Assembly: GCF_056712565.1 (NCBI RefSeq)
Contig: NZ_CM160072.1
Strand: one strand, 5' to 3'
Length of the DNA stretch: 64,000 nt
Each line of letters starts with the position of its first letter. Position 1 is the stretch's first letter. Position numbers and translations under genes: made by a program. This document shows, one piece after another, positions 47,024 to 47,578 of the stretch. The notes beneath the pieces are model-generated. The model saw only the letters and a list, made by a program, of their open reading frames with translations. It was not told the origin of the DNA and made no database searches.

Positions 47024-47578
47024 ATGGATCACTACCTTGAGATCCGCGTTCTGCCAGATCCTGAATTTTCGAGCGAAATGTTGATGGCGGCGTTATTTGC
47101 AAAACTGCATCGGGTATTAGGTGCAAGAGGGCAAGGCGATATCGGCGTGAGTTTCCCTGACGTAAATGTTATGCCTGGAGCGCGTTTACGCTTGCATGGT
47201 AGCGCCCAGGCATTGCAGGCGCTTGAAGCCTCAACGTGGCGTAAAGGACTAACGGACTATTGCCAATGTTCACCTGTCACTCCCGTTCCAGAAATAAAAG
47301 GCTGGCGAGTAGTAAGCCGCGTGCAGGTTAAAAGTAACCCTCAGCGTCTGTTAAGGCGTTCAGTGAAAAAAGGCTGGCTAACTGAAGAATAGGCAATTGA
47401 ACGACTGGCGACGCAGGCTGAACAGCGGACTGATTTACCTTTTCTCAATATGAAGAGTTTGTCGAGTCAGCAACTGTTCAAGTTGTTTATCCGTCATGGT
47501 GATTTGCTCAAAGAACCGGTTAAAGGGGAATTTAGTAGTTATGGATTAAGCGCAACCGCCACTATTCCCTGGTTTTGA
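47024..47578 (+). pseudogene. cas6f: Csy4 (Cas6f) repeat endoribonuclease interrupted by an in-frame TAG at 47390-47392
   Basis: MDHYLEIRVLPDPEF... for 122 codons, then TAG; the same frame continues 61 codons to a TGA at 47576-47578 and keeps Cas6f C-terminal homology (DLPF, FIRHG, YGLS, PWF); AGGAG ribosome-binding site. Confidence 0.85.

Follow-up and report, generated by a model that had tools for sequence, protein, structure and literature searches.

The characterised endoribonuclease that acts on the repeats of type I-F clustered regularly interspaced short palindromic repeat (CRISPR) systems is Csy4, or Cas6f, of Pseudomonas aeruginosa PA14 (PDB 2xli, 4al5 and others). His29 and Ser148 have been proposed as its catalytic pair (PMC9850488), and His29 has been found to be required for mature CRISPR RNA (crRNA) (PMC4678832). 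Spacer acquisition in type I-F also needs the Csy proteins, and it is abolished by deletion of csy3 or by mutation of the catalytic His29 of Csy4 (Vorontsova et al. 2015, PMC4678832). Natural inactivation of such a system has been described in Escherichia coli UTI89, where csy2 carries a CAG-to-TAG change and the array targets the strain's own plasmid (Jiang et al. 2013, PLoS Genet, PMC3784566). The gene treated here is cas6f (csy4) of the same locus, as it occurs in a stretch of 64,000 nucleotides (contig NZ_CM160072.1 of RefSeq assembly GCF_056712565.1; hereafter the window), which is E. coli chromosome of the sequence type 95 (ST95) kind. This cas6f is interrupted by one in-frame amber codon, and very probably it is a recent, neutral second-hit pseudogene in a I-F system that had already been disabled through csy2.

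The interrupted cas6f gene

From an ATG at 47024 the gene is translated as MDHYLEIRV...KKGWLTEE up to a TAG at codon 123 (47390-47392), after which the same frame reads AIERLATQ...TIPWF, a further 61 codons, before a TGA at 47576-47578. The original prediction, made from the letters and their open reading frames, had placed the end of the frame at KKGWLTEE and its continuation to this TGA, and the translation matches exactly. It had also named the gene as cas6f, the tail as the Cas6f C-terminus and the whole as a full gene of 184 codons with one nonsense codon, and all of this is borne out by alignment with solved Cas6f/Csy4 structures. With the stop masked, the conceptual protein of 184 amino acids aligns end to end with 9irf_B (184 residues, E=3e-60) and, also end to end, with the P. 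aeruginosa Csy4 structure (E about 1e-47). On the NCBIfam profile TIGR02563 (cas_Csy4), for which the curated cutoff is 36.25 bits, it scores 183.7 bits, with all 184 profile positions covered. Without the tail, residues 1-122 reach 110.4 bits; the gain of about 73 bits that the tail brings is far beyond chance, and the 61 codons are therefore genuine Cas6f coding sequence. The catalytic and RNA-recognition residues are all encoded in the DNA, and the Prokaryotic Genome Annotation Pipeline (PGAP) flags cas6f on identical sequence as a pseudogene with an internal stop. As judged from profile, residues and frame together, the gene is a cas6f pseudogene that falls short of the family only in its lack of an open frame.

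What the truncated product keeps and loses can be read from pairwise residue mapping. His29 is kept, as are Arg99, Gln101, Arg111 and Arg112 (window numbering), the counterparts of P. aeruginosa Arg102, Gln104, Arg114 and Arg115. The residues beyond the stop include Ser145, Ser147, Phe152 and Tyr173, which correspond to Ser148, Ser150, Phe155 and Tyr176, so the earlier statement that the product would lack its C-terminal segment takes on a definite content. From structural work on Csy4, Tyr176, Arg102, Gln104 and the arginine-rich helix have roles in catalysis or RNA recognition. A Cas6f(1-122) that retains His29 and the arginine-rich RNA-binding helix and loses the remainder of its C-terminal domain, the catalytic serine with it, is strongly expected not to process precursor crRNA (pre-crRNA). 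The lesion should be without polar effect on other genes, since cas6f is the last gene ahead of a terminator-like hairpin, which is likely to be the end of the cas operon.

The allele is not confined to one strain. Of the 240 complete E. coli genomes that have this I-F gene, 11 contain an exact 59-mer centred on the cas6f TAG; these carriers are spread over seven countries (China, the USA, South Korea, Sweden, Australia, Thailand and the UK), with humans, a dog and chickens as hosts. PGAP flags cas6f as a pseudogene with an internal stop in all 11. The exact product of 122 amino acids is recorded on 318 public contigs and in GenBank, for example as EGB49273.1 (E. coli H252) and also for HVH 104. 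The cas6f TAG is a genuine, inherited and already annotated allele.

Ancestry of the stop and state of the I-F locus

The UTI89 allele differs from that of the window at a single one of 555 nucleotides, with C in place of T at 47390, and so has CAG (Gln123). The more divergent intact cas6f allele of NC101 also has CAG at codon 123. By the testimony of these alleles, the stop is a C-to-T transition that turned the CAG of Gln123 into TAG. A comparison with intact alleles had been proposed along with the original prediction, and it confirms TAG as the derived state; the GAG-to-TAG origin offered there gives way to CAG. Cas6f homologues of other genera have Glu at the equivalent of position 123, which probably prompted the guess.

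The age of the mutation can be gauged from a comparison over window positions 30000-54999 (25 kb). This region is 100% identical to those of avian pathogenic E. coli (APEC) E18055 (O2:K1:H7), AH21G053 and AH19D088. Between the carriers and their nearest non-carrier, ZJ3920, there are two single-nucleotide polymorphisms (SNPs), at 47390 and 48139. All carriers share T at both positions, and further single SNPs mark three small sub-lineages within them. As read from this pattern of descent, the cas6f TAG has one origin, inside the csy2-null ST95 lineage. The second SNP, a C-to-T change, affects position 21 of the downstream array's first repeat, immediately 3' of the hairpin stem. This is the point at which Cas6f cleaves, and with this base the 5' handle of the crRNA begins. 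Together the cas6f TAG and the linked repeat SNP make clean markers of one globally spread ST95 subclade. A Dcm deamination hotspot was considered as the source of the cas6f and csy2 stops and rejected, as neither mutated C lies in CCWGG (ancestral contexts GAACAGGC and TTTCAGTT).

Conservation of the 61 downstream codons had been put forward as noteworthy. With one base of difference from the intact ST95 allele, and two SNPs in 25 kb, it loses that standing: the codons look conserved because the mutation is young and decay has had no time. On these distances, the conservation of the tail says nothing about function.

The type I-F1 locus is otherwise of regular build. Its six cas genes stand in canonical order, the repeats are I-F repeats of 28 nucleotides, and there are 13 of them in two arrays. 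The order along the chromosome is clpA, CRISPR array, cas1f, cas3f, csy1, csy2, csy3, cas6f, serW (on the opposite strand), second array and infA. Two of the six cas genes are pseudogenes, the other being csy2, which has a TAG in place of the CAG of Gln72. When 237 complete I-F E. coli genomes were searched for this stop by an exact 59-mer, 124 proved to carry it, among them UTI89, S88 and the type strain ATCC 11775, three strains in which cas6f is intact. By PGAP flags, csy2 has an internal stop in each of the 11 cas6f-TAG carriers as well. Since every cas6f-TAG genome carries the csy2 stop and the csy2 stop is far wider, the csy2 lesion came first and the cas6f lesion later. In 113 of the 124 csy2-null genomes cas6f has stayed intact. 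The csy2 nonsense mutation, as its sequence is read, would have left the I-F system already dead before cas6f was hit.

Divergence between the window and NC101 is uneven along the operon, with 31 differences in csy1 and 27 in cas6f, and only 3 in csy2 and 4 in csy3. Such unevenness suggests past recombination between lineages within the cas operon.

The arrays give a second view of the state of the system. Their spacers are identical in every csy2-null genome examined apart from two internal exceptions, a 3-spacer difference relative to UTI89 and a one-spacer duplication in APEC 16-1068; no new leader-end spacers were found among these genomes. NC101, the genes of which are intact, has longer arrays (10 and 14 spacers), and in each of them the oldest spacer is the only one in common. 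For three of the 11 window spacers (sp4, sp5 and sp9), perfect matches occur in over 5000 plasmids; most of these are conjugative, and their hosts are Escherichia, Klebsiella, Salmonella and Shigella. The match sites of sp4, sp5 and sp9 are an unannotated region, an antirestriction gene and a RepB-family (RepFIB) initiator gene. In the one plasmid inspected for it, the sp5 match has CT upstream, not CC. For sp9, a target was located in a carrier itself: it lies inside repB of the resident 200-kb ColV plasmid of APEC E18055 (NZ_CP126941.1, position 45881), with a CC protospacer-adjacent motif (PAM) directly upstream and one mismatch at spacer position 25. The targets of sp4 and sp5 were not found in the E18055 plasmid pEND_Eco18055, which sp9 alone matches. 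The stable presence of the sp9-targeted ColV plasmid fits an inactive I-F system, as a working one would be expected to attack it. Invariant leader ends and a PAM-flanked sp9 target on a carrier's plasmid both speak against ongoing function.

A recent (2026) preprint attributed the 'conserved spacerome' of ST95 to the gut environment. The csy2-null state offers a simple genetic reason for it.

Explanations weighed

The course of events that would best account for both stops is one of stepwise decay. The older csy2 change at Gln72, common to the wider ST95 lineage, would have removed a subunit needed for interference and for spacer acquisition. Selection on the operon would then have gone, and cas6f would have taken a second, neutral hit at Gln123 in one ST95 subclade. 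Inactivation of the whole system fits the IncF/ColV virulence plasmids that the array spacers target, and carriage of these plasmids may have selected for it. The kind of mutation calls for no special cause. In the cas operon, which has 77 CAG codons, a stop would result from about 9% of C-to-T changes and from about 4% of substitutions of every kind; CAG-to-TAG is the commonest route to a stop, so two CAG-derived ambers are unremarkable.

Several points weigh against this account. The link between plasmid carriage and selection for inactivation is correlative. Two SNPs on the carrier branch in 25 kb are too few for statistical proof of relaxed selection, and the loss of cas6f function in the window strain is read from the sequence. 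Natural read-through of UAG at a low level, with Gln as the usual residue inserted, could restore the wild-type protein at both sites. The check for a suppressor covered the glutamine tRNAs alone, in one carrier.

If both ambers were translated, by a Gln-inserting suppressor (a supE-type tRNA-Gln with a CUA anticodon) or by efficient read-through, Csy2 and Cas6f would be made in their wild-type form and the system would work, either in general or under certain conditions. In favour of such translation, both stops are TAG derived from CAG, so that one Gln suppressor would repair both exactly; the remaining cas genes are also all intact. Such translation is nevertheless very improbable. In APEC E18055, which matches the window base for base through the 25 kb, the four glutamine tRNA genes covered have wild-type anticodons, TTG in two of them and CTG in the other two, and CTA is not among them. 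The base after the cas6f stop is G, which is not a leaky UAG context in E. coli by published context rules. A supE 75-mer occurs in 155 genomes, and among the matches listed (60 of 155) these are laboratory or K-12-type strains and no carrier. A repaired system would also have to be squared with the lack of leader-end spacer gain across the csy2-null lineage and with the persistence of the PAM-flanked sp9 target on a resident ColV plasmid, and the commonness of CAG-to-TAG changes takes the force from the shared origin of the two stops. The distribution of alleles does not resemble that of programmed recoding or of a suppressed amber, for 229 of the 240 genomes are without the exact TAG 59-mer, and UTI89, NC101 and ZJ3920, read directly, have CAG.

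The second knockout might instead have been positively selected as a 'double lock', which would keep a csy2 revertant from reactivating the system against the cell's own IncF/ColV virulence plasmids. In conjugative plasmids the spacers do target RepFIB, the leading region and antirestriction sequences, one such target is PAM-flanked on a carrier's resident plasmid, and both carrier-branch SNPs in the 25 kb fall within the CRISPR-Cas locus. Yet selection would act on a csy2 revertant directly, by way of plasmid loss or self-damage, and a second lock would gain the lineage little. A pair of SNPs is too small a number to demonstrate selection, and second hits do not seem to recur, since nearly all csy2-null genomes (113 of 124) have cas6f intact. 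Neutral decay needs fewer assumptions, and selection for the second stop is very unlikely to be the explanation.

A weaker form of translation through the stops, in which low-level or stress-induced UAG read-through or some other suppressor tRNA yields trace amounts of wild-type Csy2 and Cas6f and a conditionally active I-F system, is very unlikely. If it were true, trace read-through would amount to a leaky immune system tolerated beside the IncF plasmids that it targets.

A new role for Cas6f(1-122), whether in binding the repeat hairpin without cleavage or through trans complementation by a separately translated C-terminal fragment that starts at Met143 (ATG 47450), is highly improbable. 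The fragment does keep His29 and the counterparts of Arg102, Gln104, Arg114 and Arg115, with 110 bits on TIGR02563, and an in-frame ORF (open reading frame) of 42 codons begins with that ATG (47450-47578). No Shine-Dalgarno sequence was seen 5' of 47450, though, and the cut falls inside the C-terminal domain, so that the fragment probably cannot fold. The allele is also too young to bear a sequence signature of new constraint, and with Csy2 missing there would be no surveillance complex to use the RNA.

That 47390 is truly C and cas6f intact is hardly credible: a one-base difference from the common allele is how a sequencing or assembly error would look, but the identical base stands in 11 independent complete assemblies from varied laboratories, countries and hosts, the truncated protein is on 318 public contigs, including the GenBank entries for H252 and HVH 104, and T at 47390 co-segregates with the second SNP at 48139.

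Other features and known systems

Coordinates of the I-F locus and of the features around the cas6f stop are collected in Table 1.

Table 1. Features of the CRISPR-Cas locus, in window coordinates
Feature	Position	Strand	Basis
CRISPR array 5' of cas1f: 5 spacers between 6 repeats, the last of which is degenerate; matches to conjugative plasmids for spacers 4 and 5	38731..39058	+	
Spacer sp4	38939-38970		
Spacer sp5	38999-39030		
cas1f, intact	39231..40214	+	
cas3f (cas2-3 fusion), intact	40211..43444	+	
csy1, intact	43774..45081	+	
csy2 pseudogene, TAG at 45291-45293 (Gln72 CAG to TAG), earlier inactivating hit	45078..46001	+	exact 59-mer search; PGAP 'internal stop'; published for UTI89
csy3, intact	46012..47013	+	
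Shine-Dalgarno GGAG, 6 nt 5' of cas6f ATG	47014..47017	+	direct sequence reading
cas6f/csy4 pseudogene, 184 codons and stop, interrupted at codon 123	47024..47578	+	translation; PDB Cas6f match; TIGR02563; PGAP 'internal stop'
In-frame amber TAG, from CAG (Gln123) via C-to-T at 47390	47390..47392	+	comparison with UTI89 and NC101
61 untranslated codons, including Ser145, Ser147, Phe152 and Tyr173	47393..47575	+	residue mapping; family score
Terminator-like hairpin (10 pairs, 6 G-C) followed by T run, just 3' of cas6f	47597..47630	+	consensus scan only
serW tRNA-Ser(GGA), between cas6f and downstream array; not a suppressor	47689..47776	-	
CRISPR array 3' of serW: 6 spacers between 7 repeats, the last of which is degenerate; match to RepFIB repB for spacer 4 ('sp9')	48119..48507	+	
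C-to-T at repeat position 21, first (leader-proximal) repeat of downstream array, co-inherited with cas6f TAG	48139	+	array and 25-kb comparison
Spacer sp9	48328-48359		

Three features elsewhere in the window may be recorded. At 1-1352, inserted beside ybjL, a P2-like prophage ends, with a gene for late control protein D and one of the Ogr/Delta zinc-finger kind. This prophage end is found in most carriers and in some non-carriers, and it is absent in APEC E18055, where rcdA and ybjJ directly follow ybjL. The window is thus distinct from E18055; AH21G053 and AH19D088 agree with it in both regions compared. The lipoprotein gene ybjP (about 17105-17619, minus strand) is frameshifted, the frame changing after about 40 codons; in APEC E18055 PGAP flags ybjP as a frameshifted pseudogene, and its alignment to the window is gap-free. 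In ftsK, at about 57950-58100, mismatches and small indels against APEC E18055 are clustered (the aligned 6 kb has 30 mismatches and 4 gaps), probably because the repetitive linker of FtsK varies in length.

Descriptions of the cas6f stop itself were not found in the searchable literature, and recent surveys of E. coli CRISPR, together with the ST95 preprint, mention neither stop. The finding is nonetheless ordinary decay of a known kind, the cas6f lesion being already annotated in RefSeq and the truncated protein already in GenBank.

The relation to described systems is close on three sides. PA14 Csy4 exceeds the conceptual E. coli protein in length by 3 residues, and its His29, Arg102, Gln104, Arg114, Arg115, Ser148, Ser150, Phe155 and Tyr176 all have identical counterparts there. 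The E. coli protein differs in having Lys115/Lys116/Gly117 in place of Arg118/Arg119/His120, and in the window its residues from 123 on are untranslated. In comparison with intact E. coli Cas6f (WP_000350182.1 in UTI89, S88 and ATCC 11775; WP_000350184.1 in NC101), gene and length are the same, and so is the position in the locus, as the last gene of a cas1f-cas3f-csy1-csy2-csy3-cas6f operon between clpA and serW/infA. The window gene is identical to the UTI89 allele at 554 of 555 nucleotides; it differs in having TAG, not CAG, at codon 123, and its translation ends after 122 residues. The nearest parallel to the lesion is the csy2 Gln72 amber of UTI89 (PMC3784566), which is of the same locus, the same lineage and the same type (CAG to TAG) and is also present in the window. 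That stop is in a different gene, is the earlier of the two and is wider (124 against 11 genomes), and the cas6f stop adds nothing conceptually to the published case. Taken as a series, csy2 and then cas6f, the two stops make a tidy example of how a defence system decays step by step in a pathogen lineage that depends on plasmids.
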